The position numbers were made by a program, and so were the translations under genes. A model generated the notes under the pieces. It saw nothing but the letters and a program-made list of their open reading frames with translations, did no database searches and had not been told where the DNA came from. Below, piece by piece: positions 22,259 through 36,656 of a DNA stretch of 52,670 bases. Source of the DNA: a virus (Duplodnaviria; Caudoviricetes); the IMG/VR virus record IMGVR_UViG_3300034068_000720, positions 1 to 52,670 of that record. One strand, 5' to 3'. Every line of letters begins with the position of its first letter. Position 1 is the stretch's first letter.

Positions 22259-22287
22259 TTGACTTTTAAGTTAAACGGATATATAAT
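22259..22287 (+). promoter_or_regulatory. sigma70 promoter of tRNA array 1 leader
   Basis: TTGACT-17-TATAAT; ATG 6 nt downstream. Confidence 0.8.
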
Positions 22288-22293
22288 AACACT

Positions 22294-22359
22294 ATGCTAA
22301 ACATTAATCTATTACCAGGTAACACAGGAACAGCCTTAGAGGATACTCCAAGGCCGTAA
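22294..22359 (+). CDS. Putative leader (attenuator) peptide 1, MLNINLLPGNTGTALEDTPRP
   Basis: Starts at predicted transcription start; stop codon lies in the 5' strand of the antiterminator; composition matches array 1 tRNAs. Confidence 0.7.
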   Translation: MLNINLLPGNTGTALEDTPRP

Positions 22360-22419
22360 ATCTACACACCTAGTAAAGATTACGGCCCTGGAACTAAACA
22401 CTCCAGGGTTTTGCTTTTT
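22347..22419 (+). terminator. Attenuator 1: antiterminator overlapping intrinsic terminator
   Basis: TCCAAGGCCGTAAATCT (22347-63) pairs AGATTACGGCCCTGGA (22377-92); terminator CCCTGGA/TCCAGGG + TTTTGCTTTTT. Confidence 0.75.
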
Positions 22420-22441: not shown

Positions 22442-22517
22442 GCGGGATTAGCTCAGTTGGTAGAGCGATACCTTGCCAAGGTATAGGTCGAGAGTTCGAG
22501 CCTCTTATCCCGCTCCA
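22442..22517 (+). tRNA. tRNA-Gly(GCC)
   Basis: Cloverleaf, anticodon loop TTGCCAA, CCA end. Confidence 0.95.
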
Positions 22518-22531
22518 AAAGAGTTTTAAAG

Positions 22532-22597
22532 TGTTGTAAAAATACAACAAAAAACTTTCAAATAAGTGTTGACAAAGTGGCTTAACTGTCGTATAAT
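22532..22597 (+). promoter_or_regulatory. Palindromic operator plus sigma70 promoter inside array 1
   Basis: TGTTGTAAAAATACAACA; TTGACA-17-TATAAT. Confidence 0.75.
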
Positions 22598-22636
22598 TGA
22601 TACTTACACAGCAACAAACGATAGAGTAGTTGTTTA

Positions 22637-22648
22637 GTTCTTTAACAA
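22637..22648 (+). promoter_or_regulatory. boxA-like antitermination element
   Basis: GTTCTTTAACAA about 35 nt after the predicted start; close to rrn boxA GCTCTTTAACA. Confidence 0.55.
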
Positions 22649-22721
22649 TTTAGTGGCAATTTTTATGTAAGCACATTAACTTGAACGGATTCTTTCCTAG
22701 TATTGCTTTTGTGTTTACCAT

Positions 22722-22796
22722 GCTCGATTCGTCTATCGGTTAGGACGCTGGCCTTTCACGCCGGAAAGAGGGGTTCGATTCCCCTATCGAGTACCA
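22722..22796 (+). tRNA. tRNA-Glu(TTC)
   Basis: Cloverleaf, loop CTTTCAC, CCA. Confidence 0.93.
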
Positions 22797-22943
22797 TTTG
22801 TTTAGTGTTATCAGGGTATCGTGTGCAGACGTGTACACTATGCGGGCCTAACTGGCGAGGGACAGGTCCTAATATAACTGCTTAGTCGCTATGGACGGAA
22901 GCGCAACTGACTCCTAAATTGAGCAGATAGCACTAAACAAATG
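22795..22943 (+). ncRNA. Unrecognised structured RNA closed by an 18-bp stem
   Basis: CATTTGTTTAGTGTTATC / GATAGCACTAAACAAATG enclosing a GC-richer 113 nt; fills the space between two tRNAs. Confidence 0.6.
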
Positions 22944-22946
22944 TAT

Positions 22947-23031
22947 GCGAGTATGGAGAAATCGGTATACTCAAGAGACTTAAAATCTCTCGTCGAAAGG
23001 CATCCCGGTTCGACCCCGGGTACTCGCACCA
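22947..23031 (+). tRNA. tRNA-Leu(TAA)
   Basis: Loop CTTAAAA, variable arm, CCA. Confidence 0.93.
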
Positions 23032-23037
23032 AGTTTA

Positions 23038-23114
23038 GGAGTGGTAGATCAGCTGGTTAGATTACCTGCCTGTCACGCAGGGGGTCGCGGGTTCGAGTCC
23101 CGTCCACTCCGCCA
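23038..23114 (+). tRNA. tRNA-Asp(GTC)
   Basis: Loop CTGTCAC, CCA. Confidence 0.95.
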
Positions 23115-23117
23115 AAT

Positions 23118-23310
23118 CCCGTTACTATTTTCGTTAAAATAGCGTTTGATTAGCGATAGAGATCCGGTGGCAGAAAACCGTAAGCGTGGGGCTGGAAACT
23201 ACCCCTACAGACTCTGATAGGCAGTATCCTTCTGCACACAGACTTTGAATAAAAAGGATGGACAGAGTAACCGCTCAATTTAAGGGCTGGTGTGGAAACC
23301 AGTAGCTTAA
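23118..23310 (+). ncRNA. Unrecognised ~190-nt structured RNA, copy 1
   Basis: Shares ordered motifs and a covarying 3' hairpin with 25559..25746. Confidence 0.65.
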
Positions 23311-23319
23311 TCCTAATTT

Positions 23320-23393
23320 TGTAGCAGTAGTAGTTACGGGCACTTCCGGCAACAGGAGGCGCTGACTAGCAGGGTGCAACTCCCTCGGCTACA
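23320..23393 (+). ncRNA. tRNA-like element (acceptor-like stem and T-arm, no D-arm, no CCA)
   Basis: TGTAGC/GCTACA stem, AGGG-TGCAACT-CCCT T-arm, long irregular central hairpin. Confidence 0.45.
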
Positions 23394-23401
23394 TCTATTT
23401 T

Positions 23402-23462
23402 GAGAGCCACATCGCCTGGATACTTCCTCCTTGGAGCACTAGGTCCTGCAACCGTGGCTCTC
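23402..23462 (+). ncRNA. Small structured RNA hairpin
   Basis: GAGAGCCAC/GTGGCTCTC outer stem; CCTGG/CTAGG inner stem. Confidence 0.45.
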
Positions 23463-23466
23463 CCTT

Positions 23467-23551
23467 ATATTAAAACACATTGACGTGTGACTGCGTCACT
23501 GTCTCAGTGAGAGGCCTGTTAAAGCTACAGGACATCAGTGTGTTTCAATAT
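23467..23551 (+). ncRNA. Stem-enclosed element directly upstream of tRNA-Leu(TAG)
   Basis: ATATTAAAACACATTGA / TCAGTGTGTTTCAATAT; same stem family as 24861..24943. Confidence 0.55.
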
Positions 23552-23555
23552 GATA

Positions 23556-23640
23556 GCCCCCTTGGCGGAATTGGTAGACGCGGCAGATTTAGGTTCTGTT
23601 ATCGAAAGGTGTGAGAGTTCGAGTCTCTTGGGGGGCACCA
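23556..23640 (+). tRNA. tRNA-Leu(TAG)
   Basis: Loop TTTAGGT, variable arm, CCA. Confidence 0.93.
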
Positions 23641-23649
23641 GGTTTTGAT

Positions 23650-23760
23650 GAGGGGGAGTGTGCATAGCGGCCCTGGGCCTACGGTGCCTACTCTTAAACA
23701 ACAGCAGAGCAGTTACGCAAACATCGTAACATAAGACTTGGAGCCACTCCTGTGCCCCTT
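23650..23760 (+). ncRNA. Unrecognised structured RNA
   Basis: GAGGGG/CCCCTT and GGAGTG/CACTCC closing stems; internal GTTACG/CGTAAC hairpin; no ORF. Confidence 0.45.
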
Positions 23761-23780
23761 AGCACTTTATAAATAGACGC

Positions 23781-24659
23781 ATGATACAATTAGATCAAGC
23801 AGAAGTTAGTTGGGCATTAAATGCACATTGTGGACATAAATGTTCATACTGTCATTCCCAATACAGTGGCGGTGAATTAGACAAGTCTGTTGATCAGTAT
23901 CTGGCAATTATTAAAAAATTGCAGGATACAAGATACCAGCACCATTCTAAGATATACTGGAAAATCAGTGGAGGGGAACCCCTACACTTTCCGCATCTAA
24001 GCACAGTATTAAAAAAGATGAAAGAAAAGCCTTGCGTCATACGACTGGATACCAGTGGTGATGACAATTGGTTTTCATTGTACGGTGTTATAAATCTAAT
24101 AGATAAAATAAAACTCACATATCATTCGTGGCAAAACGATGATGTGTTTGGTTTCGTACTAGAACAATGTCAAGAAAAGAATGTAAGTGTAACAATTGAA
24201 GTTCCATTGTTACCCGGTGCTATAGTAGAGTCTAGGGCCAAAGTAAAACATTTTGTAGACTTGGGATATGTATGCAATGAACAGGTACTACGTGACTTAG
24301 GTGGCGACTTACATCGGGGATATAGTCAACTTGATGAAAACAGAATCTATGGTAGACCCGATGATTGGGAACCAGAACTGGTTGTGTATAATCCAAACTT
24401 ACCAGATCCCAACTATGTAGATTTAAGTACTGTCAATAACACTGATCCTGTGTACACTGGTATGCCATGTTATGCAGGTGTTGATTGGTTGTACATAAAC
24501 CCTAGGGGATTTGCCTCATACAGCCAATGTGGTGGCAGGAACGAACACTTTAATGCGTTTGATCCTGCATGGCAACCACCCAGCAATTCGTTCCCTTGCA
24601 CAGTTAATCAGTGCAGGAGTGAACAGGATAGGACAAAAATAAGAATTCACAATTCTTAG
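23781..24659 (+). CDS. Radical SAM protein
   Basis: CGHKCSYC, SGGEP, C-terminal Cys cluster; TATAAATA 5 nt before ATG. Confidence 0.9.
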   Translation: MIQLDQAEVSWALNAHCGHKCSYCHSQYSGGELDKSVDQYLAIIKKLQDTRYQHHSKIYWKISGGEPLHFPHLSTVLKKMKEKPCVIRLDTSGDDNWFSLYGVINLIDKIKLTYHSWQNDDVFGFVLEQCQEKNVSVTIEVPLLPGAIVESRAKVKHFVDLGYVCNEQVLRDLGGDLHRGYSQLDENRIYGRPDDWEPELVVYNPNLPDPNYVDLSTVNNTDPVYTGMPCYAGVDWLYINPRGFASYSQCGGRNEHFNAFDPAWQPPSNSFPCTVNQCRSEQDRTKIRIHNS

Positions 24660-24667
24660 TACAGAAC

Positions 24668-24860
24668 GTTCCGAGTGTCTTCGGATAGTGTGACCCACAC
24701 GATGAGAAGTAGTGTGACAACTACGGGTGGTAGTCTTCGAACCCAAAGGCCGCTAGCAATGCGAGAACGGTCCCTGTCGGGAAGCGGGTGGAAGGAGTGT
24801 GTGATGGGTATGATAGCGTCATATCTTGATACTCTATAATTACCGCCGGGGGATGCAGAG
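24668..24860 (+). ncRNA. Unrecognised ~190-nt structured RNA
   Basis: GC-rich intergenic stretch with hairpins TGTC-TTCG-GATA, GTAGT/ACTAC, TCCC/GGGA, GGTATGA/TCATATC. Confidence 0.55.
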
Positions 24861-24943
24861 CATATTGAAGCACATTAAAGATAGGGTCGTAGCGGTTCCA
24901 TGAACTTGAGTACATACCAAGGTAGTTAGTGTGTTTCAATATG
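24861..24943 (+). ncRNA. Stem-enclosed element directly upstream of tRNA-Ala
   Basis: CATATTGAAGCACATTAA / TTAGTGTGTTTCAATATG, 18 bp with two G-U pairs. Confidence 0.55.
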
Positions 24944-24947
24944 TTTT

Positions 24948-25023
24948 GGGGGTGTAGCTCAGTTGGGAGAGCGTCTGCTTTGCAAGCAGAATGTCGCAGG
25001 TTCGATCCCTGTCACCTCCACCA
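24948..25023 (+). tRNA. tRNA-Ala(TGC)
   Basis: G3-U70 pair, loop TTTGCAA, CCA. Confidence 0.95.
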
Positions 25024-25040
25024 ATATTAAGGAGAAAGCT

Positions 25041-25208
25041 ATGAGTGATGGCGGTAAAGGATCTGCGCCAAGGCCAAAAAGTGTTGATGCAAATACATTT
25101 GCAAGCAATTGGGAATTGGCGTTTGGCAAGAAGAAATCTCAAGAAGAAATGATTGATGAAGAGATTGAAGTCGAAGGCACTGTCAAAGACAGTGAACAAG
25201 GCGGATAA
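25041..25208 (+). CDS. Small hypothetical protein
   Basis: AAGGAG SD; MSDGGKGSAPRP..; the ORF-track start lies inside the tRNA. Confidence 0.7.
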   Translation: MSDGGKGSAPRPKSVDANTFASNWELAFGKKKSQEEMIDEEIEVEGTVKDSEQGG

Positions 25209-25218
25209 GTAAAGTGCT

Positions 25219-25294
25219 GGGTCGTTAGCTCAGTTGGTAGAGCGTCTGCCTTACACGCAGAATGTCGGCGGTTCGAGCCCGTCACGACCCACCA
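25219..25294 (+). tRNA. tRNA-Val(TAC)
   Basis: Loop CTTACAC, CCA. Confidence 0.95.
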
Positions 25295-25301
25295 AAATTT
25301 A

Positions 25302-25377
25302 GCCCTTATAGCTCAGCTGGTAGAGCAACTGATTTGTAATCAGTAGGTCCCGTGTTCGAATCATGGTGGGGGCACCA
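25302..25377 (+). tRNA. tRNA-Thr(TGT)
   Basis: Loop TTTGTAA, CCA. Confidence 0.95.
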
Positions 25378-25384
25378 AATATCT

Positions 25385-25461
25385 CGGAGTGTAGCGCAGT
25401 CTGGTAGCGCACCTGGTTTGGGACCAGGGGGTCCAAGGTTCGAATCCTTGTACTCCGACCA
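25385..25461 (+). tRNA. tRNA-Pro(TGG)
   Basis: Loop TTTGGGA, CCA. Confidence 0.95.
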
Positions 25462-25466
25462 TGTTG

Positions 25467-25540
25467 GCGGGATTCGTAAAATGGTATTACCTTAGATTTC
25501 CAATCTAAAGTCGGGAGTTCGATTCTCCCATCCCGCTCCA
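25467..25540 (+). tRNA. tRNA-Gly(TCC)
   Basis: Loop TTTCCAA, CCA. Confidence 0.93.
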
Positions 25541-25558
25541 AGAACCCGGGCGCCCTTG

Positions 25559-25746
25559 CCCGTTATACAAAGGGGGGAATACTGGCAAACCCATAGACGC
25601 CACGGTGCATTGGATCTACCGCAAGGTTCCCTTTAGGAACTACTTGAGAAATCACAAAGGCAGGGACGCTAACCTGTCTAAATAGAAAAGTACGTAGACA
25701 GAGTAGACTGCTCAGTCCGGGGCCTATGTGGTGTAGGTAGCCGGAC
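25559..25746 (+). ncRNA. Unrecognised ~190-nt structured RNA, copy 2
   Basis: Homologous in motif order and structure to 23118..23310. Confidence 0.65.
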
Positions 25747-25755
25747 ACTAATTAT

Positions 25756-25831
25756 CGCGGGGTACGTCAGTGGCCAGACTGCTAGGCTCATAACCTAGAA
25801 GACGGAGGTTCGAATCCTTCCCCCGCAACCA
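25756..25831 (+). tRNA. tRNA-fMet(CAT), initiator type
   Basis: CGCGGGG start with C1:A72 mismatch, loop CTCATAA, CCA. Confidence 0.9.
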
Positions 25832-25837
25832 ACACAT

Positions 25838-25913
25838 TCCCTGATAGCTCAGTTGGTAGAGCACACGACTGTTAATCGTGTTGTCCCTGGTTCGAGCCCA
25901 GGTCGGGGAGCCA
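25838..25913 (+). tRNA. tRNA-Asn(GTT)
   Basis: Loop CTGTTAA, CCA. Confidence 0.95.
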
Positions 25914-26400: not shown

Positions 26401-26415
26401 TAGTTAAATAATACT

Positions 26416-26622: not shown

Positions 26623-26631
26623 GGAAGTATT

Positions 26632-27087: not shown

Positions 27088-27090
27088 GCA

Positions 27091-27995: not shown

Positions 27996-28033
27996 GCAGA
28001 TATTTAGCATCGATGATTGTGCTATATACTGAT

Positions 28034-28711: not shown

Positions 28712-28717
28712 CGTCTA

Positions 28718-28803
28718 ATAGATTTTGTCAATTGCCGCTATAAAAAAATACAATGGGTTTTAATGGTTTTATAGTTGACTTCTATGATATATACTAGTAT
28801 ACT
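28718..28803 (+). promoter_or_regulatory. OxyR-type binding site and promoter of the ahpC operon
   Basis: ATAG-N7-CAAT-N7-ATAA-N7-CAAT (28718-54); ATAG-N7-CTAT over TTGACT-17-TATACT. Confidence 0.65.
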
Positions 28804-28883
28804 TGAAAGTATCAGTATAAACACTGAGTTCCGAAGCCGATGAAGGATCGGAACTTACTCGCTTAAACAAAGGAGATATAAGC

Positions 28884-29839: not shown

Positions 29840-29840
29840 A

Positions 29841-30347
29841 ATGAGTTTTATTGAATCAGTTAAAGGTGCATTACCAGACTACGCAAAAGATACCAAGTTA
29901 AATCTTGATGCTGTCCTGTTGCGTAGCACATTAGATGCAGATGTGGCCATGGGTTGTGCTGTAGCCGCACTTGCCGCAACAGGCAACGGCAAAATTCTAT
30001 CGGTAATTTTAGCAGATGCTCCAGTACACGCAGAGTCGGCACTGACCGCCGCAAGCATTATGGCACAGAACAATGTATGGTATCCATATGTTGAGATGGC
30101 CGATGATCCTAGTCTAAAAGGATTGCCTGCACAGTTACGTATGAACGCCATTGCGTCACACGGTGGAACTACCAAGAGCAACTTTGAAGCATTTAGTTTG
30201 GCAGCTAGCATTGTTGGCAAGTGTCACTTCTGTGTAAAAGCACATTACGAAACATTGAAGACAGAAGGCTACACAGTGGAACAACTTCGTGACATTGGTC
30301 GGATTGCCAGTGTTATGAATAGTGTAGCAAAAGTGCTGAACAGTTAA
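29841..30347 (+). CDS. ahpD: Alkyl hydroperoxide reductase AhpD
   Basis: LPDYAKD, MAQNNVWY, CHFCVKAH. Confidence 0.92.
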   Translation: MSFIESVKGALPDYAKDTKLNLDAVLLRSTLDADVAMGCAVAALAATGNGKILSVILADAPVHAESALTAASIMAQNNVWYPYVEMADDPSLKGLPAQLRMNAIASHGGTTKSNFEAFSLAASIVGKCHFCVKAHYETLKTEGYTVEQLRDIGRIASVMNSVAKVLNS

Positions 30348-30348
30348 T

Positions 30349-31092
30349 ATGTTTACAGAAAAAGTTACATGGGTTCATCACTGGAGTGATCGTACATTCA
30401 GTTTTAAATGCACTCGCAATACTGCATTCAGATTTGTTGCTGGCGAATTTGCCATGATTGGTTTAATGATTGACGGCAAGAGAGTTATTAGAGCTTATAG
30501 TGTGGTAAGTCCACCATGGGCAGAAGAACTAGAATTCCTTAGTATTAAAATTCAAGACGGTGAATTGACCAGTAGGCTACAACATATAGAAGTTGGCAGT
30601 GAAGTTGTCGTCATGCCTAAAGCTACAGGCACATTAGTTAACAGTGCATTAACACCTGGCGGTGAACTATGGATGCTGGCCACTGGCACAGGGCTTGCTC
30701 CTTTTATGAGCTTGATTCGTGATCTAGAAACATTGGAAACATGGACTAAGATTCATATGGTTCATAGTGTTAGACATAGTTCAGATTTAGCGTATAACGC
30801 AGATTTAACATCTGCATTTAAACTTCATCCGCAAGATGGGGAATTGCACGAAATGGTTCATGCGGTATTAGAATATCATCCTATACTTACAGGGCAAGGA
30901 GAGCATAGGATTACAACGCAACTTGCCCATCACCACTTGCCCATAGACACAGATACAGATAAAATCATGGTCTGTGGTAATTTAGAATTTAATCATCAAG
31001 TTGCTGATTGGTGTCGAGCACAAGGCATGACTGAAGGAAGCATACGTGAACCAGGAACATTTGTTGTAGAAAGAGCATTTGTAGAAAAATGA
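30349..31092 (+). CDS. fpr: Ferredoxin--NADP+ reductase
   Basis: RAYS, ATGTGLAPF, MVCG, ERAFVEK. Confidence 0.92.
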   Translation: MFTEKVTWVHHWSDRTFSFKCTRNTAFRFVAGEFAMIGLMIDGKRVIRAYSVVSPPWAEELEFLSIKIQDGELTSRLQHIEVGSEVVVMPKATGTLVNSALTPGGELWMLATGTGLAPFMSLIRDLETLETWTKIHMVHSVRHSSDLAYNADLTSAFKLHPQDGELHEMVHAVLEYHPILTGQGEHRITTQLAHHHLPIDTDTDKIMVCGNLEFNHQVADWCRAQGMTEGSIREPGTFVVERAFVEK

Positions 31093-31117
31093 AAACGATT
31101 ATCGTAAAGGAAATACA

Positions 31118-31513
31118 ATGCTAGAATGTTTGATTTTAGGTGACAGTATTGCAGTTGGCACACACCAATTCCGGCAAGAGTGTGTGCTAGTGGGTAAGGG
31201 TGGCATCAACTCTTGGCAATTCAACAAGAACTACGCCAAGAAAATTGAGCCGGCTAATACAGTAATCATCAGCTTGGGTTCTAACGATCATGATGGTGTA
31301 AACAGTTTCAAGGAACTGTTGGCCATGCGACAACGGATAGAAGGCAAGCGAGTATTTTGGATCATGCCTGCCATCAAACCACACATTCAAGACATGGTGC
31401 AGATCATTGCCAAAAATTATGGTGATACAGTACTGCCCATCACCAAGTTACAGCCTGACAAAGTACACCCAAGTTGGGCTGGCTACAACGAAATTGCAAG
31501 TACTACTAAGTAA
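31118..31513 (+). CDS. SGNH/GDSL hydrolase-like protein
   Basis: LGDSIA, LGSND, DKVHP. Confidence 0.8.
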   Translation: MLECLILGDSIAVGTHQFRQECVLVGKGGINSWQFNKNYAKKIEPANTVIISLGSNDHDGVNSFKELLAMRQRIEGKRVFWIMPAIKPHIQDMVQIIAKNYGDTVLPITKLQPDKVHPSWAGYNEIASTTK

Positions 31514-31517
31514 GGGC

Positions 31518-32105
31518 ATGATTACTCAATTTCCAATTCTTATTTTAGCAAATTATAGAACAGGATCAACAGCACTGCTCCATAGTATGGCCAGCGAATA
31601 CAGTTTAGAACGTTTTTCAGAACCGCATCTTAGGCCTGAGTCGATGCAGACATTGTCTGATAAGATTGAAAATAAACAAAATGATTCTATTATTAAATTC
31701 ATGCCTGATCAAATTGTCAAATATCAAATATATCAATACTTTTACAACAGCGATTGCTATAAAATTAAACTACAGCGCAGAGACAGGGTGGCTCAGATTA
31801 CAAGTTTCTATGCATCGCTTATAAGTGGAAAATGGCATGAATATAAATCAGTGCCACCCACTAAAAAATATTCTATTCCGTTTAACGATGAAGTTGCCGA
31901 TCGTGCAATTGATCAAATACTACATAACGACAAATTGTTCGAGGAAATGGATATTAAATTTGACCAAGAATTATTTTATGAAGATTTGAATTTAGAAAGT
32001 ACCCCTTTTATTTCTAAGTTACCTAGCTTAATAAATTATAATAAAATTTATCTATACTTGGAACACAAATTGCAGATCCAATCTGAGCTGGCTACAAAGA
32101 GCTAG
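31518..32105 (+). CDS. Sulfotransferase-like protein
   Basis: ANYRTGSTALL, FSEP, LQRRD..QITS, FYEDL. Confidence 0.65.
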   Translation: MITQFPILILANYRTGSTALLHSMASEYSLERFSEPHLRPESMQTLSDKIENKQNDSIIKFMPDQIVKYQIYQYFYNSDCYKIKLQRRDRVAQITSFYASLISGKWHEYKSVPPTKKYSIPFNDEVADRAIDQILHNDKLFEEMDIKFDQELFYEDLNLESTPFISKLPSLINYNKIYLYLEHKLQIQSELATKS

Positions 32106-32127
32106 TGAGTAATACAAAATAACTACC

Positions 32128-32176
32128 GTTGTATTTTTACAACACCGGTTGACAAACTAATTTTTTGTGCTATAAT
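32128..32176 (+). promoter_or_regulatory. Palindromic operator plus sigma70 promoter
   Basis: GTTGTATTTTTACAAC; TTGACA-16-TATAAT with extended TG. Confidence 0.65.
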
Positions 32177-32196
32177 AGTTCTTTAAAAGGATTTCT

Positions 32197-32409
32197 ATGT
32201 TGACACTTAAACAACGAGCCGCAATCGAAGTGGCAAAAATTTTCATCTTGGCAATAGTTATTGGCACAGGTACTGGCATTTTGCTTAATACTGTGCCACT
32301 GGCAATCATTGGCATTGGTGCATGTATCATCATGTTGGTGTTTGGTACCAAGATGATTTATGATACAAAGCTTTCACAACTGGAAGCAGAAGAAAAATTA
32401 AAAAGTTAA
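32197..32409 (+). CDS. Small two-helix membrane protein
   Basis: AAGGA SD; two hydrophobic segments. Confidence 0.7.
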   Translation: MLTLKQRAAIEVAKIFILAIVIGTGTGILLNTVPLAIIGIGACIIMLVFGTKMIYDTKLSQLEAEEKLKS

Positions 32410-32436
32410 ATTTTTTCACTATAAGTCAAATAAAGG

Positions 32437-32465
32437 TTGACAAGTAGACTAAGTAAGTGTATAAT
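32437..32465 (+). promoter_or_regulatory. sigma70 promoter of tRNA array 2 leader
   Basis: TTGACA-17-TATAAT; ATG 7 nt downstream. Confidence 0.8.
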
Positions 32466-32472
32466 GATTACT

Positions 32473-32586
32473 ATGATGCAAAACATTTCTTATCAATCGC
32501 AAAGTTGGTGCTCTAAGCAGAGTATAAGCTTCTGTGCCTCTAAGTTTATGTCTTATCGTCATATTTCAGGAGCATGTCCAGGATAA
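32473..32586 (+). CDS. Putative leader (attenuator) peptide 2, MMQNISYQSQSWCSKQSISFCASKFMSYRHISGACPG
   Basis: Leaderless start; last codons form the antiterminator 5' strand; composition matches array 2 tRNAs. Confidence 0.75.
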   Translation: MMQNISYQSQSWCSKQSISFCASKFMSYRHISGACPG

Positions 32587-32638
32587 AGTAATCTAGCCAT
32601 TACTAACACCCTGGACTCGAAAGGCTCCAGGGTTTTTT
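32576..32638 (+). terminator. Attenuator 2: antiterminator overlapping intrinsic terminator
   Basis: GTCCAGG/CCTGGAC plus AGTAAT/ATTACT; terminator CCCTGGA/TCCAGGG + TTTTTT. Confidence 0.8.
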
Positions 32639-32652
32639 ATTGATAGGAAAAA

Positions 32653-32814
32653 ATGAAATCAGGTAACAAGAAATTAAAAGAAGTTGAGTGGATTCGACAG
32701 CACACGTTAACACAAGAGCAGACTAAACAACTGATTCTAAACAAGTTAAAACGTGCTGAAGAAATGCATATCGCTTTTAAACGGCAGGAGATGTTGGTTC
32801 AAAAACATCGTTGA
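32653..32814 (+). CDS. Small basic hypothetical protein (53 aa)
   Basis: AGGA SD; first ORF after attenuator 2. Confidence 0.6.
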   Translation: MKSGNKKLKEVEWIRQHTLTQEQTKQLILNKLKRAEEMHIAFKRQEMLVQKHR

Positions 32815-32918
32815 TAGCAAAGTGTGTATAGGTAACGAGGACCTAGCCTGCACTTAAAACATGGGCAAACGGGCGGCGACTAGGATGAAATCCCTTGTGT
32901 GGGAGGAAAAATTAGATC
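32815..32918 (+). ncRNA. Possible structured RNA
   Basis: GC-rich intergenic stretch; TAGGT/ACCTA and GGAT-GAA-ATCC hairpins. Confidence 0.4.
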
Positions 32919-32974
32919 GTATTAAAGCATTCTTTAAGAACAGGCAGCCTAAGTATTTTAGAGTGCTTTAATAC
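32919..32974 (+). ncRNA. Stem-enclosed element
   Basis: GTATTAAAGCATTCT / AGAGTGCTTTAATAC, related to the array 1 stems. Confidence 0.45.
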
Positions 32975-33004
32975 ACACATTTGCAAGAGTGTGTTAGAAA
33001 CATG

Positions 33005-33033
33005 TTGACAATCAACATGCAAAGCCTTATAAT
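33005..33033 (+). promoter_or_regulatory. sigma70 promoter directly upstream of array 2 tRNAs
   Basis: TTGACA-17-TATAAT; -35 lies inside palindrome CATGTTGA-CAA-TCAACATG. Confidence 0.7.
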
Positions 33034-33041
33034 AAGATTAT

Positions 33042-33116
33042 GGGCTAATAGCTTAATGGTAAAGCAGTCGACTCATAATCGATTGAGTGTAGGTTCAATT
33101 CCTACTTAGCCCACCA
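33042..33116 (+). tRNA. tRNA-Ile2(CAT), lysidine type
   Basis: CGACTCATAATCG anticodon arm and GGTTCAA T-loop resemble bacterial Ile2; Met cannot be excluded. Confidence 0.8.
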
Positions 33117-33125
33117 AACAATTTA

Positions 33126-33210
33126 GGAGATGCCGCCGTAATGGTATGGCAGGGGACTGTAAATCCTCCGACTTCGGTCATAATAGGTTCGATCCCTATC
33201 ATCTCCACCA
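33126..33210 (+). tRNA. tRNA-Tyr(GTA)
   Basis: Loop CTGTAAA, variable arm, CCA. Confidence 0.93.
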
Positions 33211-33214
33211 ATTT

Positions 33215-33288
33215 GTATCCATAGTGTAATGGCAGCATCGCGGTCTCCAAAACCGTCAGTCTAGGTTCGAGTCCTAGTGGGTACGCCA
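33215..33288 (+). tRNA. tRNA-Trp(CCA)
   Basis: Loop CTCCAAA, CCA. Confidence 0.93.
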
Positions 33289-33295
33289 AATAATA

Positions 33296-33387
33296 GGAAA
33301 GTGATGCAGGTGCGTTGGTGCGCCGACCAGCCTTGAAAACTGGGTTCTCAGAAATGGGATGGGGTTCGACTCCTCCGCTTTCCGCCA
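33296..33387 (+). tRNA. tRNA-Ser(TGA) with 8/4 cloverleaf
   Basis: 8-bp acceptor, 4-bp T-stem, 6-bp D-stem, loop CTTGAAA, G73, CCA. Confidence 0.85.
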
Positions 33388-33390
33388 AAT

Positions 33391-33466
33391 GCCAAGATAG
33401 CTCAGTTGGTAGAGCACCGGTCTGAAGAATCGGGTGTGGTTGGTTCGATCCCAACTCTTGGTACCA
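33391..33466 (+). tRNA. tRNA-Phe(GAA)
   Basis: Loop CTGAAGA, CCA. Confidence 0.93.
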
Positions 33467-33473
33467 AATTAAT

Positions 33474-33549
33474 GTGGGTGTGTACTGAATGGTTAGGTAG
33501 CGGATTGCAAATCCGTTTTATGCAGGTTCGATCCCTGTCACCCACTCCA
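33474..33549 (+). tRNA. tRNA-Cys(GCA)
   Basis: Loop TTGCAAA, U73, CCA. Confidence 0.93.
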
Positions 33550-33558
33550 AAATATTAC

Positions 33559-33632
33559 TGGGGGTTAGTTAAATGGTATAACCGCGGATTTTGATTCCGC
33601 TGTCACAAGTTCGATTCTTGTACCCTCTGCCA
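33559..33632 (+). tRNA. tRNA-Gln(TTG)
   Basis: Loop TTTTGAT, CCA. Confidence 0.92.
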
Positions 33633-33651
33633 AATTTATCAGGAGTAACGT

Positions 33652-33774
33652 ATGAACTGGGAAGCATCTAACAAAATTAACGAAAGGGCAATCCTAGAAT
33701 GGACCCGAATGTGTAAAGCATACCGGGAGTATCTTTACCTCGGAAGATCTTCATCGCTATCGTATAATGGATAA
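33652..33774 (+). CDS. Possible 40-aa ORF overlapping tRNA-Arg(GCG)
   Basis: AGGAG SD; MNWEASNKINERAILEW.. Confidence 0.4.
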   Translation: MNWEASNKINERAILEWTRMCKAYREYLYLGRSSSLSYNG

Positions 33775-33827
33775 TACACCAGTTTGCGGAACTGGGAATT
33801 TAGGTTCGATTCCTGATGGCGGTACCA
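33753..33827 (+). tRNA. tRNA-Arg(GCG)
   Basis: Cloverleaf, loop TTGCGGA, CCA. Confidence 0.88.
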
Positions 33828-33841
33828 ATATAAATATTTCA

Positions 33842-34585
33842 ATGAATCCAAATTTATTAATAATCAAAGACATTGTAGGAACACCATTGATAACCAAGTT
33901 TAGAGGAGTAGATTCTGAATCTCGTTTCAATCATAATCTGGCCAATACTCCTGGCTTTAAAGCTGAATGGGCCAACTTTCCAATCACCTATAGTTTAAAC
34001 AGCAACTACTATCGTTGCCCCGAATGGAAAGACATAGAGTGGGATAAAAGTGTTTTGTTGTTAGGCGACAGTTGGGCATTTGGCCAGGGGCTGGATCTTC
34101 CTTCAACCATCGCCAGCAGACTTAGTCATGAGCTAAACGGGATACCTGTGGTCAACCTTGGGCAAACTGGTACCAGCTGGACATTTTCCTGGATTAATTC
34201 AGTTAGATTAGTTGAAGCTGGAATTAGGCCCCGGGCCGTGATTTATATTTGGACGCATACTGCACGTTACGCTCAGTTGCTAGAAAACAACATAACACAC
34301 TCGCATGGGGCATGGGACGTTGACCAGCCAGGCTTAAGCCGAGAATATGCCATGGATCCGGTGCATTCTATGAACATGAGTATAGAGATTTTAAGATCAA
34401 TTCGCACAATGTGGACTTGTCCACAACTGCATTACACTTGGAGTAAGCATGTTGAGTTGCCAGGAGTACACTATCTTGGTAACTCAGAACTTGACAAAGC
34501 TCGTGATCTTATACATCCTGGTCCCAGATCAACTGCACAGTGGGCACGATCTATGGCACAGGAATTGTCAAGTAAAATTAACTAA
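33842..34585 (+). CDS. SGNH-like hypothetical protein
   Basis: LLGDSWAFG, VNLG..G, DLIHPG; TATAAATA-N5-ATG. Confidence 0.65.
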   Translation: MNPNLLIIKDIVGTPLITKFRGVDSESRFNHNLANTPGFKAEWANFPITYSLNSNYYRCPEWKDIEWDKSVLLLGDSWAFGQGLDLPSTIASRLSHELNGIPVVNLGQTGTSWTFSWINSVRLVEAGIRPRAVIYIWTHTARYAQLLENNITHSHGAWDVDQPGLSREYAMDPVHSMNMSIEILRSIRTMWTCPQLHYTWSKHVELPGVHYLGNSELDKARDLIHPGPRSTAQWARSMAQELSSKIN

Positions 34586-34593
34586 TAAAATTT

Positions 34594-34669
34594 GGGACTA
34601 TAGCTCAGCTGGTAGAGCAGTGGACTTTTAATCCATTGGTCGCGAGTTCGAATCTCGCTGGTCCCACCA
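34594..34669 (+). tRNA. tRNA-Lys(TTT)
   Basis: Loop CTTTTAA, CCA. Confidence 0.95.
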
Positions 34670-34670
34670 A

Positions 34671-35171
34671 TTATTCAGAAGGTTTATCTATATTAATAGA
34701 AATAGATACTCTGTCACCAGATCCGGTGTTTATACCAGCTCTGTGATGCATGTCTTTTGAAAATAAAAACCATGTGCCTGTTTCGCAGTTGTGCTTGGTC
34801 CACCGGTTACCAATTAGTAATTCCAATGGAGGGTGACTTGGTTTACAATTAACATAATACACTAAAACTTTATCTCCTGAGTGTAAATGATAGTGTGACT
34901 TCATTATACCTCCGGTTAATGTAATATTATACCAACTTATCATTATTTGATCAGGTACAACCAAGTGCTTTAAGCAATCTAGTACTGGTGCAAATTCAGG
35001 CCAAAGATGCGGGTTGGCACCGGGGTTTGTTCGGGCTCCTGCGTGAGATTCCACTATTCTTTCAAAATGTTTACTAGTAGGGTTAATCATAGCGATAGTC
35101 TTATCAGTGGAAGTATCCATGCATCGTTTCATCAATGCAGTATTATCAATATTAAGACGTCCAGTTAGCAT
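34671..35171 (-). CDS. Fe/2OG oxygenase-like protein
   Basis: SWYN, SHYH, MHHRAGIN..DRVSISINI; TAAATA-N5-ATG. Confidence 0.7.
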   Translation of the reverse strand: MLTGRLNIDNTALMKRCMDTSTDKTIAMINPTSKHFERIVESHAGARTNPGANPHLWPEFAPVLDCLKHLVVPDQIMISWYNITLTGGIMKSHYHLHSGDKVLVYYVNCKPSHPPLELLIGNRWTKHNCETGTWFLFSKDMHHRAGINTGSGDRVSISINIDKPSE

Positions 35172-35199
35172 AAAATTATTTAGTGCAGACTTTCTATAT

Positions 35200-35274
35200 G
35201 GTGATATAGCACAGTGGTAGTGCATCTGCTTCATACGCAGAGTGTCGTAGGTTCAAATCCTACTATCACCACCA
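35200..35274 (+). tRNA. tRNA-Met(CAT), elongator type
   Basis: G1-C72 pair, loop TTCATAC, CCA. Confidence 0.88.
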
Positions 35275-35283
35275 AAATATTAT

Positions 35284-35359
35284 GGAGTTGTTAGTGTAAA
35301 GGTTAACACCACGGATTGTGATTCCGTTAATATGGGTTCGATTCCCATACTTCTCCCCA
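35284..35359 (+). tRNA. tRNA-His(GTG)
   Basis: G-1:C73, loop TTGTGAT, CCA; two U-U mismatches in acceptor stem. Confidence 0.85.
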
Positions 35360-35385
35360 ATATATAAGTATACAACGTAATTTAC

Positions 35386-35461
35386 ACCGCTATAGCTCAG
35401 TTGGTAGAGCACCGCCTTGATAAGGCGTAGGTCCCTGGTTCGAGTCCAGGTGGCGGTACCA
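35386..35461 (+). tRNA. tRNA-Ile(GAT)
   Basis: Loop TTGATAA, CCA. Confidence 0.93.
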
Positions 35462-35464
35462 ATT

Positions 35465-35662
35465 TTATTGTTTGTCTATCTTCTTGGCGATTTCGTGAGC
35501 CGTTTTAATTACCTTTTTAGGAAGGTCATGTGCAGGTTTTTCACCGTAGCCGTATTTCTTTTTGGCCACTGCCATTCCTACAGCATAAGGATTGTCTACT
35601 TTTTCTTCTACAGGTACGTCATTGATAATGTCAATGTATTTTCTTAGTAAGTTGCCACTCAT
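35465..35662 (-). CDS. Small hypothetical protein
   Basis: AAGGA SD; LRKYIDII, NPYAVGMAVAKK. Confidence 0.65.
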   Translation of the reverse strand: MSGNLLRKYIDIINDVPVEEKVDNPYAVGMAVAKKKYGYGEKPAHDLPKKVIKTAHEIAKKIDKQ

Positions 35663-35730
35663 GATCAAATTCCTTTACAATATTTAACACCGTTAAATAA
35701 AGTATACTCATACTTTCGTACGAGTATCGT

Positions 35731-35805
35731 CGGTCCTTAGTTCAATGGATAGAATGCTTGGCTTCGAACCAAGTGGTGTGGGTTCGATTCCTGCAGGACC
35801 GGCCA
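35731..35805 (+). tRNA. tRNA-Arg(TCG)
   Basis: Loop CTTCGAA, CCA. Confidence 0.92.
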
Positions 35806-35811
35806 GTTATT

Positions 35812-36144
35812 TTAGCGCAGACCGCGAGCCAATCGCATTGGAATAACAGCGGCAATTTCGTCGTAGTCATCCATGTCAATCACATCGTCGGTGCCAACTT
35901 CAATTATTTTTTCAACCAAGAAGTGCAGTAGTGTGTCACTGACAACATCTTCGCGTACCAGTTCTAGTATGCGGATAAGTGCAGGAATATTAAAGCTGAC
36001 AGCAGGACCGTAGGCTTCTTTGGTTTCTACCATTGATTCATCTTCAGTTTCGCCATTGGTATCTGTTGTAGTACCATTTCTATAATGTAGTACATATTTA
36101 GACTTGGGTAAAATTGTTTTGTTAGATTTTCTGTAGTATGCCAT
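35812..36144 (-). CDS. Hypothetical protein
   Basis: AAGGA SD; IPALIRILELVRED. Confidence 0.65.
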   Translation of the reverse strand: MAYYRKSNKTILPKSKYVLHYRNGTTTDTNGETEDESMVETKEAYGPAVSFNIPALIRILELVREDVVSDTLLHFLVEKIIEVGTDDVIDMDDYDEIAAVIPMRLARGLR

Positions 36145-36231
36145 TTGGTTTCCTTTGTAGTTACTTAGACCATCTATTTAAAATTACAAAATGAAAACAT
36201 CACACTACTTTAGCCGATCTAGCAATTTGTC

Positions 36232-36260
36232 TTGACAAAGATCAATAAGTATCGTATAAT
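36232..36260 (+). promoter_or_regulatory. sigma70 promoter upstream of tRNA-Ser(GCT)
   Basis: TTGACA-17-TATAAT. Confidence 0.7.
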
Positions 36261-36281
36261 AAACAAATAGCAAAGAACACA

Positions 36282-36369
36282 GGAGCATTGGCCGACCGGT
36301 TAAGGCAACAGATTGCTAATCTGTCACTGCGTAAGTGGTGAGTAGGTTCGATTCCTACATGCTCCGCCA
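36282..36369 (+). tRNA. tRNA-Ser(GCT)
   Basis: Loop TTGCTAA, variable arm, CCA. Confidence 0.93.
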
Positions 36370-36393
36370 ATTTTTACAACCAGAAAGACTCAG

Positions 36394-36549
36394 ATGATTA
36401 AACCAGGCAAAACATTCAAACTTAGCAAATCAACCAAGCGCATGATGTGCAGTATTGTTGACACTAAATCTCGCAATCAATACAAAGCAATGATGATTCA
36501 AGCCGAGCTTGCTGCCAATGTTATCATCAAACGCGAACCACGCAAGTAA
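36394..36549 (+). CDS. Small basic hypothetical protein (51 aa)
   Basis: MIKPGKTFKLSKSTKRMM..MIQAELA. Confidence 0.6.
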   Translation: MIKPGKTFKLSKSTKRMMCSIVDTKSRNQYKAMMIQAELAANVIIKREPRK

Positions 36550-36581
36550 TTTTCTACACAGGGGTTAGTTGATTGAATTAT

Positions 36582-36656
36582 CTGGCGTTAGTACAATGGA
36601 TAGTACATAGAGCTTCTACCTCTAGAATGTGGGTTCGATTCCTGCACGCCGGACCA
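36582..36656 (+). tRNA. tRNA-Arg(TCT)
   Basis: Loop CTTCTAC, CCA. Confidence 0.92.

Follow-up and report, generated by a model that had tools for sequence, protein, structure and literature searches.

A short leader before a tRNA gene cluster of a lake jumbo phage uses almost only the amino acids of the tRNAs behind it and is most likely a sensor of translation speed

Attenuators, related switches and the phage locus

Leader-peptide attenuators are known from the amino-acid operons trp, his, leu, thr, ilv and pheA and from pheST of enterobacteria, and leaders for more than one amino acid exist (ilv, thr). The T-box riboswitch, by comparison, binds uncharged tRNA directly and without translation, and it controls synthetase, biosynthesis and transport genes. 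General descriptions of leader-peptide attenuators have been given (PMC1183508; PMC3082878). In mycobacteria, leaderless polycysteine short ORFs act as cysteine-responsive attenuators (bioRxiv 10.1101/834739), and the trn operon of Anabaena sp. PCC 7120 is a long tRNA array that is inducible (PMC8421152). The mechanisms of differential tRNA gene regulation are largely unknown according to the authors of the latter study (PMC8421152), and the reasons for and the timing of tRNA expression by phages have been a matter of debate for decades (PMC10264068). A precedent for leader-peptide attenuation of tRNA genes was not found in searches of the literature.

Here, a stretch of 52,670 nucleotides from a lake jumbo phage (IMG/VR record IMGVR_UViG_3300034068_000720; hereafter the window) was analyzed, in which a short leader ORF precedes a tRNA gene cluster and uses almost exclusively the amino acids of the tRNAs encoded behind it. 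The coordinates and content given for this leader, leader 2, in an initial annotation of the DNA were confirmed, and the locus comprises the following features:

32437..32465, plus strand: leader 2 promoter (-35, 17-nt spacer, -10), 12/12 consensus positions
32473..32586, plus strand: leader 2 ORF, 37 codons plus TAA, with the ATG 8 nt past the promoter and 7 nt past the -10 hexamer
32562..32571, plus strand: region 1, which can pair with region 2 as anti-antiterminator
32569..32582, plus strand: region 2, the last leader 2 codons and 5' strand of the antiterminator, pairing with 32610-32616 and 32624-32628
32587..32604, plus strand: small hairpin right behind the leader 2 stop codon, invariant in alignment A1
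32609..32638, plus strand: intrinsic terminator of leader 2, in which a stem of 7 bp (32609-32615 with 32626-32632) precedes a run of six T (32633-32638)
32653..32814, plus strand: basic ORF of 53 aa following the terminator and specifying a conserved small protein
32822..33004, plus strand: element X, conserved and probably a structured RNA, between the leader unit and the tRNAs
33005..33033, plus strand: second consensus promoter, 12/12, directly before array 2
33042..36656, plus strand: tRNA array 2 with 15 tRNAs (Met/Ile2, Tyr, Trp, Ser, Phe, Cys, Gln, Arg, Lys, His, Ile), from ARAGORN calls and clustering

Promoter, short ORF and intrinsic terminator thus follow each other upstream of the tRNA genes and on their strand, the terminator lying 24 nt after the ORF stop; it was missed by a simple terminator scan because its loop exceeds 8 nt. 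The same layout was found in 12/12 homologues on viral contigs and 24/24 metagenome loci, with the frame open in all of them and with the spacer and -10 of the promoter conserved in the 12 viral contigs. Since the ATG follows the -10 hexamer by only 7 nt, the leader 2 mRNA is probably leaderless, and a distance of 6-7 nt was observed in all 17 copies of leader 1 (see below) and leader 2 that were compared. Those distant relatives that are not leaderless show a purine-rich stretch before the ATG. A point against the attenuator reading preferred below is the L083 lineage, where the promoter of the leader is degenerate and the leader is placed about 100 nt into the transcript, without an obvious ribosome-binding site; reading by eye, the small hairpin behind the stop codon is replaced there by a different self-complementary pair. 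Among 11 distinct homologues the leader 2 ORF is open in 11/11, frame 1 containing the terminal stop only, compared to 1-4 stops in frame 2 and 0-3 in frame 3. Gap runs inside the ORF measure 3, 6 or 9 nt only, and variable positions are distributed over the three codon positions as 15/35, 17/35 and 22/35, only a mild third-position bias, which speaks against the attenuator reading.

The window carries a second unit of this kind, leader 1, ahead of another array:

22259..22287, plus strand: leader 1 promoter, 11/12 consensus
22294..22359, plus strand: leader 1 ORF, 21 codons plus TAA, with the ATG 6 nt after the -10 hexamer
22352..22387, plus strand: hairpin A, whose 5' strand includes the last codons and the stop and whose 3' strand overlaps the terminator stem
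22384..22419, plus strand: leader 1 terminator, 22 nt before tRNA-Gly, its stem varying by double changes among relatives
22442..25913, plus strand: tRNA array 1 with 12 tRNAs (Gly, Glu, Leu, Asp, Ala, Val, Thr, Pro, initiator-like Met, Asn)

Database searches added little to this description. The leader unit had a best Pfam match of 13.1 bits against a cut-off of 26, none of seven neighbouring products exceeded the Pfam cut-off, and Rfam detected only tRNAs, and no T-box, both at gathering score in the window and at E values up to 1 in 22240-33060. A sub-threshold Rfam match to a plastid leader, located on the minus strand inside a tRNA, was taken as chance. The 232-aa neighbour upstream of leader 2 has no relatives in viral contigs. 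When cultured relatives were searched, blastn of 32100-33100 returned 23 phage records that matched tRNA parts only, at ≤6% of the query, tblastn of the 697-aa neighbour gave two weak partial matches and tblastn of the 53-aa protein gave none; no cultured relative emerged from which a host could be named. Six metatranscriptome runs contained about 1/10 of the sampled words, small shares that are no evidence of habitat or expression.

As in the attenuators of amino-acid operons, a short ORF is situated between promoter and intrinsic terminator and ends in the predicted antiterminator, and its control codons correspond to the product of the genes behind it, which is tRNA and not an amino acid in this case; the relatives additionally possess a 1:2 hairpin and hence the four-region layout of the trp attenuator. 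Unlike in those operons, the proposed element resides in a phage, probably has a leaderless mRNA and precedes tRNA genes rather than genes for biosynthetic enzymes or a synthetase. A difference that counts against the attenuator reading is that the control codons of the phage leaders are single and scattered and represent 9 to 20 amino acids, whereas those of the operons form runs of one to three kinds. In leader 2 there are 1-9 control codons per amino acid, without the tandem or dense runs of attenuators. The mycobacterial ORFs, short, leaderless and placed at the 5' end of a polycistronic transcript, have a proposed role as cis sensors of amino-acid supply (bioRxiv 10.1101/834739), as leader 2 with its probably leaderless mRNA may have, but they consist of runs of one amino acid before protein-coding operons, unlike the mixed sampler before tRNA genes with its clear intrinsic terminator described here; in leader 2, 15 kinds of residue occur and the three Cys codons are scattered, with no polycysteine run. 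The Anabaena trn operon follows the same physiological logic, being a horizontally mobile tRNA array induced by impairment of translation (PMC8421152). Its control differs from that of the phage leaders in that it is assigned to direct repeats over the -10 box and the start site, bound by a putative repressor (PMC8421152), and attenuat-, leader and terminator have no occurrence in the text of that article. The T-box resembles the mechanism proposed for the phage leaders as a cis terminator/antiterminator switch reporting the charging state of tRNA; in contrast, the phage leaders, in the model proposed below, would act through translation and before tRNA genes.

Leader composition and the tRNA repertoire

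Array-2 amino acids make up 30 of the 36 non-start codons of leader 2 (binomial P = 1.2e-6, with a background share of these 11 amino acids of 0.437 in 44 long ORFs of the window). None of 200,000 random 36-residue protein windows reached 30 such residues, and by this share leader 2 ranked first when all six frames were scanned for ATG ORFs of 30-60 codons (n = 312). The initial annotation had counted 30 of the first 32 codons as belonging to the array-2 set, and this is correct, the exceptions being Asn (codon 4) and Ala (codon 22); likewise, the last five codons do include four of the six residues from outside the set (Gly, Ala, Pro and Gly). All 11 amino acids of array 2 are present as claimed, a combination that 1.7% of random 36-residue windows attain. 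The further claim that both Ser boxes and both Ile types are represented together with their tRNAs holds for the codons (TCT, TCG and TCA; AGT and AGC; ATT twice and ATA once) and in part for the tRNAs. The tRNA-Ser(TGA) at 33301-33387 was called by neither default ARAGORN nor Rfam and appeared only at a relaxed ARAGORN threshold, its counterparts in relatives being called by default ARAGORN. In clustering, the CAT tRNA at 33042-33116 groups with genes of the tRNA-Ile(GAT) type, whose anticodon stem-loop it shares, and apart from Met-like CAT tRNAs, so that it may be the proposed Ile2-CAT.

Leader 1 does the same for array 1: 18 of its 20 non-start codons are from the array-1 set, the highest share among 591 short ORFs, and the compositions of the two leaders differ significantly (Fisher test, 18/2 vs 6/28, P = 2.8e-7). 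By contrast, 'pan-amino-acid' diversity as a statistic of its own was rejected as weak (P = 0.036-0.15 per leader); the informative measure is the coverage of the amino-acid set of the leader's own array, not diversity alone.

The match persists when genomes are compared. Across 11 genomes, leader and array agreed in 196 of 220 amino-acid/genome cells as compared to 183.1 ± 3.9 with shuffled arrays (P = 0.00077), and for the nine variably present tRNA types the table was 36/6 vs 18/39 (P = 6e-8, not corrected for phylogeny). In five genomes, 247 of 285 residues matched the leader's own array and 91 the swapped one. Among the compared genomes, CTA in leader 1 and tRNA-Leu(TAG) in array 1 are both found in the window only, and array 2 of the window lacks a Leu tRNA just as leader 2 lacks a Leu codon. 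ATA codons are present in 7/7 clustered genomes with an Ile-like CAT tRNA or a TAT tRNA and absent in two of the three genomes without. Moreover, leaders of more distant phages that cannot be aligned cover from 13/13 to 19/20 amino acids of their own arrays (L089 18/18, L090 13/13, L094 18/18, L096 15/15, L097 18/18, and 19/20 in G016, which has a single array for all 20 amino acids), and a further leader covers 9/9 (G015); combined by Fisher's method over seven leader types, coverage gave P = 1.4e-11. Two observations point in the opposite direction. Residues without a tRNA behind the leader, the last five codons omitted, are Asn and Thr in 5/11 genomes each and Asp and Val in three each, and array tRNAs without a leader codon are those for Val (G008), Glu and Thr (G013), Ala (L087) and Leu (G016).

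These data bear on the notion that leader 2 is a small protein gene like any other, equipped with a promoter and a terminator of its own, whose odd composition agrees with the neighbouring tRNAs by coincidence or owing to a common codon-usage bias. Phages possess many small genes, the order of the peptide is partly conserved (17 invariant columns in 11 sequences), and its diversity is only mildly unusual, given that 19-20 distinct residues occur in 3.6-15% of random 37-47-residue windows. Nevertheless, chance is excluded by the composition, co-variation, array-swap and coverage tests, and genome-wide codon bias was rejected as the cause since it cannot generate opposite sets in one genome (18/2 vs 6/28) and does not explain why codons move along with a tRNA gene between arrays. 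With no Pfam family at the cut-off and the same layout recurring with unrelated peptides, we regard a plain protein-coding role as very improbable.

The region between leader 2 and array 2

The 53-aa ORF, which the initial annotation had named as the first gene after the terminator and suggested to examine for linkage to tRNA arrays, does exist as a conserved gene and has 122 homologue clusters and no Pfam family. Its linkage is partial: it is located behind the leader terminator in 6/10 genomes and in distant relatives and is missing in 4/10, and hence is an optional passenger and not the main target. Element X shows 92% identity to G002/G003 as compared to 77% in the flanks and, read by eye, a long closing stem with variable inserts across relatives; it had no Rfam match.

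This arrangement could be taken to mean that the unit is translation-dependent and regulatory but has another logic or target, namely the 53-aa gene or element X, the processing or folding of the first tRNAs, or read-through promoted by fast translation. The first features behind the leader 2 terminator are indeed not tRNAs but the 53-aa ORF and element X, which is conserved, and in the window and three relatives these are succeeded by a consensus promoter. Furthermore, relatives have an ATA-rich mini-ORF before tRNA-Ile(TAT) with a stop-codon hairpin lacking a T run, and the RNA of this mini-ORF can pair with the 5' part of tRNA-Ile(TAT), which suggests control of folding or processing there. 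However, the leader/array match persists in the 4/10 genomes without the 53-aa ORF, and nothing is interposed between the leader 1 unit and tRNA-Gly, which starts 60-83 nt past the leader 1 stop codon and leaves space for hairpin and terminator only. Additionally, masking a ribosome footprint at the stop codon yields the full terminator in the predicted folds of all 11 leader 2 and all seven leader 1 sequences, as expected if fast translation terminates transcription. A different target or logic of this kind is therefore considered unlikely.

The promoters in this region also bear on the attenuator reading preferred here. Array 2 of the window may be independent of read-through owing to the 12/12 promoters at 33005 and at 36232, which counts against that reading, as does a 10/12 promoter-like site with TG inside element X in G013 and G010. 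In G001, G008, G012 and L083, the stretch from the leader 2 terminator to the first tRNAs contains no promoter-like site of at least 9/12, in favour of a dependence on read-through there.

RNA pairing and the proposed switch

Anatomy, ORF conservation, leader/array co-variation and alternative pairings of the leaders were computed, and we infer the translation of the leader ORF, the transcription start, the direction of the switch and the decoding limit in vivo. In the minimum-energy fold of the free leader, the strand GTCCAGG pairs with the 5' half of the terminator, in agreement with its earlier designation as antiterminator strand. The leader folds better than shuffled sequences (z = -2.56; 3/200 shuffles as good), and in predicted folds the antiterminator pairing is incompatible with the terminator and is lost on masking by a ribosome at the ORF end, which restores the terminator. 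In the window, the equilibrium probability of the terminator is 0.10-0.79 with the A site at codons 2-30 and 0.97-0.98 from codon 31 onwards. In G001 and G002 the switch is only partial, and in G008 and G012 the terminator is at 0.94-0.97 at every ribosome position, so that the switch would have to be kinetic there. We did not count this equilibrium scan against the attenuator model: the trp terminator is also far more stable than its antiterminator, and the choice between them is kinetic.

Across the 11 leader 2 sequences the pairing of regions 1 and 2 is kept in 98% of cells, the antiterminator pairing of region 2 in 95.5-100% and the terminator stem in 96%. Since none of the leader 2 helices (1:2, 2:3, 3:4 and small hairpin) showed a compensatory double change, their columns being invariant, they have no co-variation support. 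In hairpin A of leader 1, three positions show compensatory changes, one of them being the stop codon's middle base (TAA/TTA vs TGA/TCA). The 1:2 pairing is strong in relatives and weaker in the window due to a Leu-to-Ser codon change. In relatives with a strong 1:2 hairpin, a ribosome stalled far upstream should favour termination according to the model, a point against the sensing of early codons.

Alternatively, the unit of about 165 nt from promoter to terminator might give rise to a small structured RNA that functions in trans or as a decoy, in which case the open frame would be a by-product of sequence conservation. Such an RNA would fit the fold statistics, the 3' third of leader 2 that is nearly invariant in nucleotides, the weak codon-position bias and the precedent of terminated attenuator RNAs acting in trans in Sinorhizobium (PMC6614838). 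It would leave without reason the gap runs of 3, 6 or 9 nt only and the ATG fixed at the transcript start, it does not explain why the amino-acid content tracks the array tRNAs in alignable as well as unalignable leaders, and no Rfam family was matched. Moreover, if the terminated RNA acted in trans, this would supplement attenuation and not take its place. We consider a small RNA in place of an attenuator improbable.

Taken together, the open frame in relatives, the co-change of leader and array, the sister leader 1, the non-homologous leaders and the folds support the earlier proposal of an attenuator leader tuned to array 2, and it is probable that leaders 1 and 2 are attenuators of transcription that are mediated by the ribosome and in which the control codons sample the tRNAs of the array behind. 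Following this, we propose that RNA polymerase would start at or beside the A of the ATG and that a ribosome would load on the 5' end of the transcript and trail the polymerase. If all codons are decoded fast, the ribosome at the last codons or the stop would cover region 2, the terminator hairpin at 32609-32632 would form and transcription would end. If the ribosome is delayed at a codon of a scarce or uncharged tRNA, region 2 would be free to pair with the 5' half of the terminator, and the polymerase would proceed through the 53-aa gene and element X to the tRNA genes. As the leader codons stand for the amino acids of the downstream tRNAs, this would constitute negative feedback, in which shortage of a tRNA raises the synthesis of its array. 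Candidates for what may limit decoding in vivo are the codon demand of the phage, decay of host tRNAs, tRNA-cleaving defences and amino-acid starvation. Somewhat more tentatively, lake jumbo phages may carry a whole class of such 'tRNA-demand meters', i.e., short, often leaderless ORFs with one or few codons per array amino acid, in which the transit time of a single ribosome would set transcription of the array through the choice between terminator and antiterminator.

If this holds true, it would be the first leader-peptide attenuation controlling tRNA genes and a first case of a set of control codons co-evolving gene by gene with a tRNA repertoire, and attenuation would be widened from 'one operon, one amino acid' to a general sensor of translation speed. 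The phage would increase synthesis of its own tRNAs precisely at the time of host tRNA decay or cleavage by defence nucleases, through a simple cis circuit that couples tRNA supply to tRNA synthesis down to the single codon family and that might serve as a compact synthetic-biology part reading the decoding capacity for a chosen codon set. Leader/array co-variation is a new kind of comparative signal by which such sensors can be found in other genomes, and it may serve to infer which tRNAs form a single regulatory unit for a virus. In G011 (285 kb, 86% complete), all 28 tRNA matches are located in two arrays behind two leaders.

The tRNA arrays and their leader ORFs

The viral contig of 52,670 bases that makes up the window has a G+C content of 40.7% and a CheckV completeness of 5%, and it comes from a jumbo phage, as shown by a relative of 285 kb with a rated completeness of 86% (G011; G and L handles denote relatives' sequences that carry leader homologues or related arrays). 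No cultured relative was found by blastn of 32100-33100 or by tblastn of a neighbour protein and of the basic 53-aa protein encoded at 32653-32814, and 14 lake or freshwater DNA runs contain at least half of the sampled words from 32100-33300. ARAGORN detected two tRNA arrays, both on the plus strand, each preceded by a leader:

22259-22287, plus strand: leader 1 promoter, 11/12 consensus positions matched
22294-22359, plus strand: leader 1 ORF, 21 codons, ATG 6 nt after the -10 hexamer
22442-25913, plus strand: array 1, 12 tRNAs (Gly, Glu, Leu twice, Asp, Ala, Val, Thr, Pro, Gly, Met, Asn)
32437-32465, plus strand: leader 2 promoter
32473-32586, plus strand: leader 2 ORF
32609-32638, plus strand: leader 2 terminator
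33042-36656, plus strand: array 2, 14 tRNAs at the default ARAGORN threshold and 15 at a relaxed one

Array 2 encodes Met/Ile2 (two CAT anticodons), Tyr, Trp, Ser (TGA, GCT), Phe, Cys, Gln, Arg (three), Lys, His and Ile tRNAs. In G011, all 28 tRNA hits of the record fall in two arrays behind the two leaders. The array 1 tRNA with a CAT anticodon (25756-25831) has a C1/A72 mismatch, as carried by bacterial initiator tRNAs; judged from this gene, the phage may possess its own initiator tRNA, which fits the presence of Met solely at the start of leader 1. Within array 1, a 440-nt gap between tRNA-Asp and tRNA-Leu(TAG) (23115-23555) lacks a long ORF and a match in Rfam, and the position at its end is filled by tRNA-Leu(TAG) only in the window. 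The tRNA-Arg at 33753-33827 has the anticodon GCG in the window and the near-identical L066, and ACG at the corresponding array place in relatives. ORFs between the arrays (28884-31092) resemble by eye what we take to be auxiliary redox genes of peroxiredoxin, AhpD and ferredoxin reductase type.

The initial annotation had stated that leader 2 contains every amino acid of array 2, including Trp, Cys, His and the ATA codon, and its title implied a corresponding leader 1. All described elements of leader 2 were located in the sequence, and leader 1 is present with promoter, ORF and terminator before array 1; its stop codon lies inside a hairpin followed by the terminator, and tRNA-Gly begins 83 nt past the stop. 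The choice of both ORFs rested on their place between a promoter and a terminator ahead of an array; composition played no part in it. Of the 36 non-start codons of leader 2, 30 belong to the array 2 set (background 0.437; binomial P = 1.2e-6), a count reached by 0 of 200,000 random protein windows, and the ORF ranked first by set share among 312 short ATG ORFs (30-60 codons). This enrichment is far beyond chance. Similarly, 18 of the 20 non-start codons of leader 1 specify array 1 amino acids, ranking it first among 591 ATG ORFs (20-60 codons). Residues exclusive to the array 1 and array 2 sets numbered 18 and 2 in leader 1 and 6 and 28 in leader 2, respectively (Fisher P = 2.8e-7).

Homologues of leader 2 were collected from viral contigs with a seed pattern built from the promoter and start region (12 loci) and from metagenomes with a profile of the peptides (24 loci). 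In all of them the frame was open for 37-40 codons from the homologous ATG; an in-frame ATG within the -10 hexamer would lengthen the ORF by three codons. When 11 distinct sequences were aligned, gaps within the ORF came in runs of 3, 6 or 9 nt, and past the stop codon 1-nt runs occurred too. Frame 1 contained only the terminal stop in 11/11 sequences, with 1-4 stops in frame 2 and 0-3 in frame 3. Variable columns by codon position were 15, 17 and 22 of 35; so weak a bias is expected if selection targets which amino acids occur and not their order, and it does not prove coding. The leader of more distant relatives lies away from the 5' end, with a purine-rich stretch ahead of the ATG.

Leader content and array content across genomes

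Arrays behind the leaders were fetched, and leaders were tabulated against tRNAs by coordinates for the 11 genomes in which a long stretch downstream was available.

Array amino acids covered by leader 2
Window: 11/11
G001: 14/14
G002: 12/12
G010: 12/12
G011: 12/12
G008: 16/17
G012: 11/11
G013: 14/16
L073: 12/12
L083: 16/16
L087: 18/19

Where an array had gained tRNAs, its leader contained the matching residues: all six in G008 (Asp, Glu, Leu, Asn, Pro, Thr), and in L083, where Pro, Asn, Thr and Val tRNAs were gained and not Asp or Glu, internal Pro occurs three times in the leader and Asn four times, Thr and Val are present, and Asp and Glu are missing. G012 has neither tRNA-Tyr nor a Tyr codon in its leader. 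With the last five, structure-bound codons excluded, 196 of 220 cells (20 amino acids by 11 genomes) agreed, as compared to 183.1 ± 3.9 when arrays were shuffled among genomes (P = 0.00077). For the nine variable tRNA types the counts were 36/6 versus 18/39 (P = 6e-8, uncorrected for shared ancestry), and in five genomes with both leaders, residues matched their own array in 247/285 cases and the other array in 91/285.

The correspondence extends to codons. Only the window has tRNA-Leu(TAG) in array 1, and only its leader 1 contains CTA (twice); six other listed copies of leader 1 use TTA or TTG only, and their arrays have tRNA-Leu(TAA) only. In relatives, array 2 includes tRNA-Leu(TAG) and/or (CAA) and leader 2 contains CTA, both of which are missing from the window; L073 and L087, with the CAA tRNA only, are exceptions to this match. 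The array 2 CAT tRNAs form two groups, one Met-like and present in nearly all clustered genomes (not called in G012), the other with the D arm and anticodon stem-loop of tRNA-Ile(GAT) genes. The Ile-like group or tRNA-Ile(TAT) occurs in seven clustered genomes, all with ATA in leader 2 (7/7); of three genomes without either, two (G008, G013) lack ATA. The same lineages possess a separate tRNA-Ile(TAT) before array 1, behind a dedicated leaderless ORF of 14 codons, three of them ATA. At L064:15179-15334 (minus strand), and likewise in L003, L005 and L062, this ORF stops 15 nt before the 92-nt tRNA-Ile(TAT). A stop-codon hairpin is present and a T run absent, and the leader RNA was predicted to pair with the 5' part of the tRNA, a layout that points to tRNA folding or processing, and not termination, as the controlled step.

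Further leader types were reached in more distant phages by searching with the 53-aa protein. Their order is promoter, leader of 41-50 codons, stop-codon hairpin, terminator, 53-aa homologue and tRNA array, and the leaders covered 18/18, 13/13, 18/18, 15/15 and 18/18 amino acids of the arrays seen. The G015 variant of leader 1 covers 9/9 amino acids of the array behind it (Gly, Glu, Cys, Ala, Val, Thr, Asn, Met, Asp) and differs from other leader 1 copies by including Cys and Val and omitting Pro. In G016 one array serves all 20 amino acids, and the leaderless ORF in front of it has 37 codons and 19 kinds of residue. Estimated from random windows of each phage's own proteins, the probability of reaching both the coverage and the number of matched residues ranged from below 1e-5 to 0.09 per leader, and Fisher's combination over seven leader types gave 1.4e-11.

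The initial observation was confirmed and extended, and its interpretation as an attenuator is supported by this tracking of arrays by leaders, which we regard as the decisive comparative evidence. The leaders are probably ribosome-mediated transcription attenuators whose codons sample the tRNAs encoded downstream and which exert feedback on the arrays. The mechanism proposed is that of classical attenuation, from which the phage leaders differ in their tRNA-gene target, sampler-like control codons, probable leaderless start and phage setting. In the open-access full texts searched, neither leader peptides nor attenuators were found described ahead of tRNA genes or of phage tRNA arrays. Closest in biology is a tRNA array of Anabaena that is switched on under translational stress; its induction is ascribed to a repressor site and tRNA gene regulation is called largely unknown (PMC8421152).

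Predicted RNA switches

In leader 1, the stop codon is part of hairpin A, which shows co-variation at three positions and shares 2-4 nt with the terminator stem. In folds with a stalled ribosome, hairpin A was kept and the terminator stem truncated or lost in 5/7 sequences, the full terminator persisting in G017 and G019; with the ribosome at the stop codon, the full terminator formed in 7/7.

The free leader 2 of the window folded with z = -2.56, and its minimum free energy structure contains an antiterminator in which the last codons (32569-32582) pair with the terminator 5' strand and part of the 3' strand. When a footprint from 13 nt upstream to 10 nt downstream of the stop codon was masked, the full terminator formed in 11/11 sequences. 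In an equilibrium scan, terminator probability in the window was 0.10 without a ribosome, 0.10-0.79 with the A site at codons 2-30 and 0.97-0.98 from codon 31. Relatives have an additional hairpin between His-Ile-Leu-Gly and Pro-Gly-stop codons, through which they match the four-region layout of the trp leader; in the window it is weakened by a Leu-to-Ser change. The leader 2 helices were 96-100% paired (about 95.5% at the lowest), their columns being invariant and showing no compensatory change, and in G008 and G012 the terminator was favoured at equilibrium for every ribosome position. Because of these two points, we consider a switch in leader 2 plausible, not demonstrated; the leader 1 switch is better supported.

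Downstream genes and promoters

Leader 1 is followed by nothing but tRNA-Gly, 60-83 nt past the stop codon, and this tRNA could therefore be made by read-through only. Behind leader 2 lie, in order, the optional 53-aa gene, a conserved element X and array 2. A 12/12 promoter (33005) stands between terminator and array in the window, and consensus promoters were seen there by eye in G006, G011 and G002 (in G002 also from a separate comparison). G013 and G010 have a 10/12 promoter-like site inside element X, and G001, G008, G012 and L083 have no same-strand site of at least 9/12 from the terminator to the first tRNAs. Since a second promoter is present in one case and absent in the other, the attenuator could only add to array 2 expression in the window, whereas it appears to gate the array in several relatives.

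Element X (32822-33004; also in L055, L050 and L083) is 92% identical to its counterpart in G002/G003, with flanks at 77%. A long stem closes it around an insert that varies, with a tRNA-like T-arm in the inserts of G001, G010 and L083. Rfam gave no match, and the element may be a structured RNA of a new kind or serve as a processing signal.

Promoter-like sites in 21000-38000 were in total no more numerous than in shuffles (45 vs 42.1). Five are 12/12 promoters, all on the plus strand (22569, 32149, 32437, 33005, 36232), each preceding a leader, small ORF or tRNA. That at 32149 has a TG and lies, with a 70-aa hydrophobic ORF, directly upstream of leader 2 (32149-32409); there is no terminator between this ORF and leader 2, and transcripts started by this promoter would run into the attenuator as well. 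A homologous end of the 70-aa ORF precedes leader 2 in G009. In the L083 lineage (L083:1121-1260) the leader 2 promoter is degenerate, and a perfect promoter about 107 nt upstream starts another leaderless ORF of 26 codons, with about 20 nt between its end and the leader 2 ATG.
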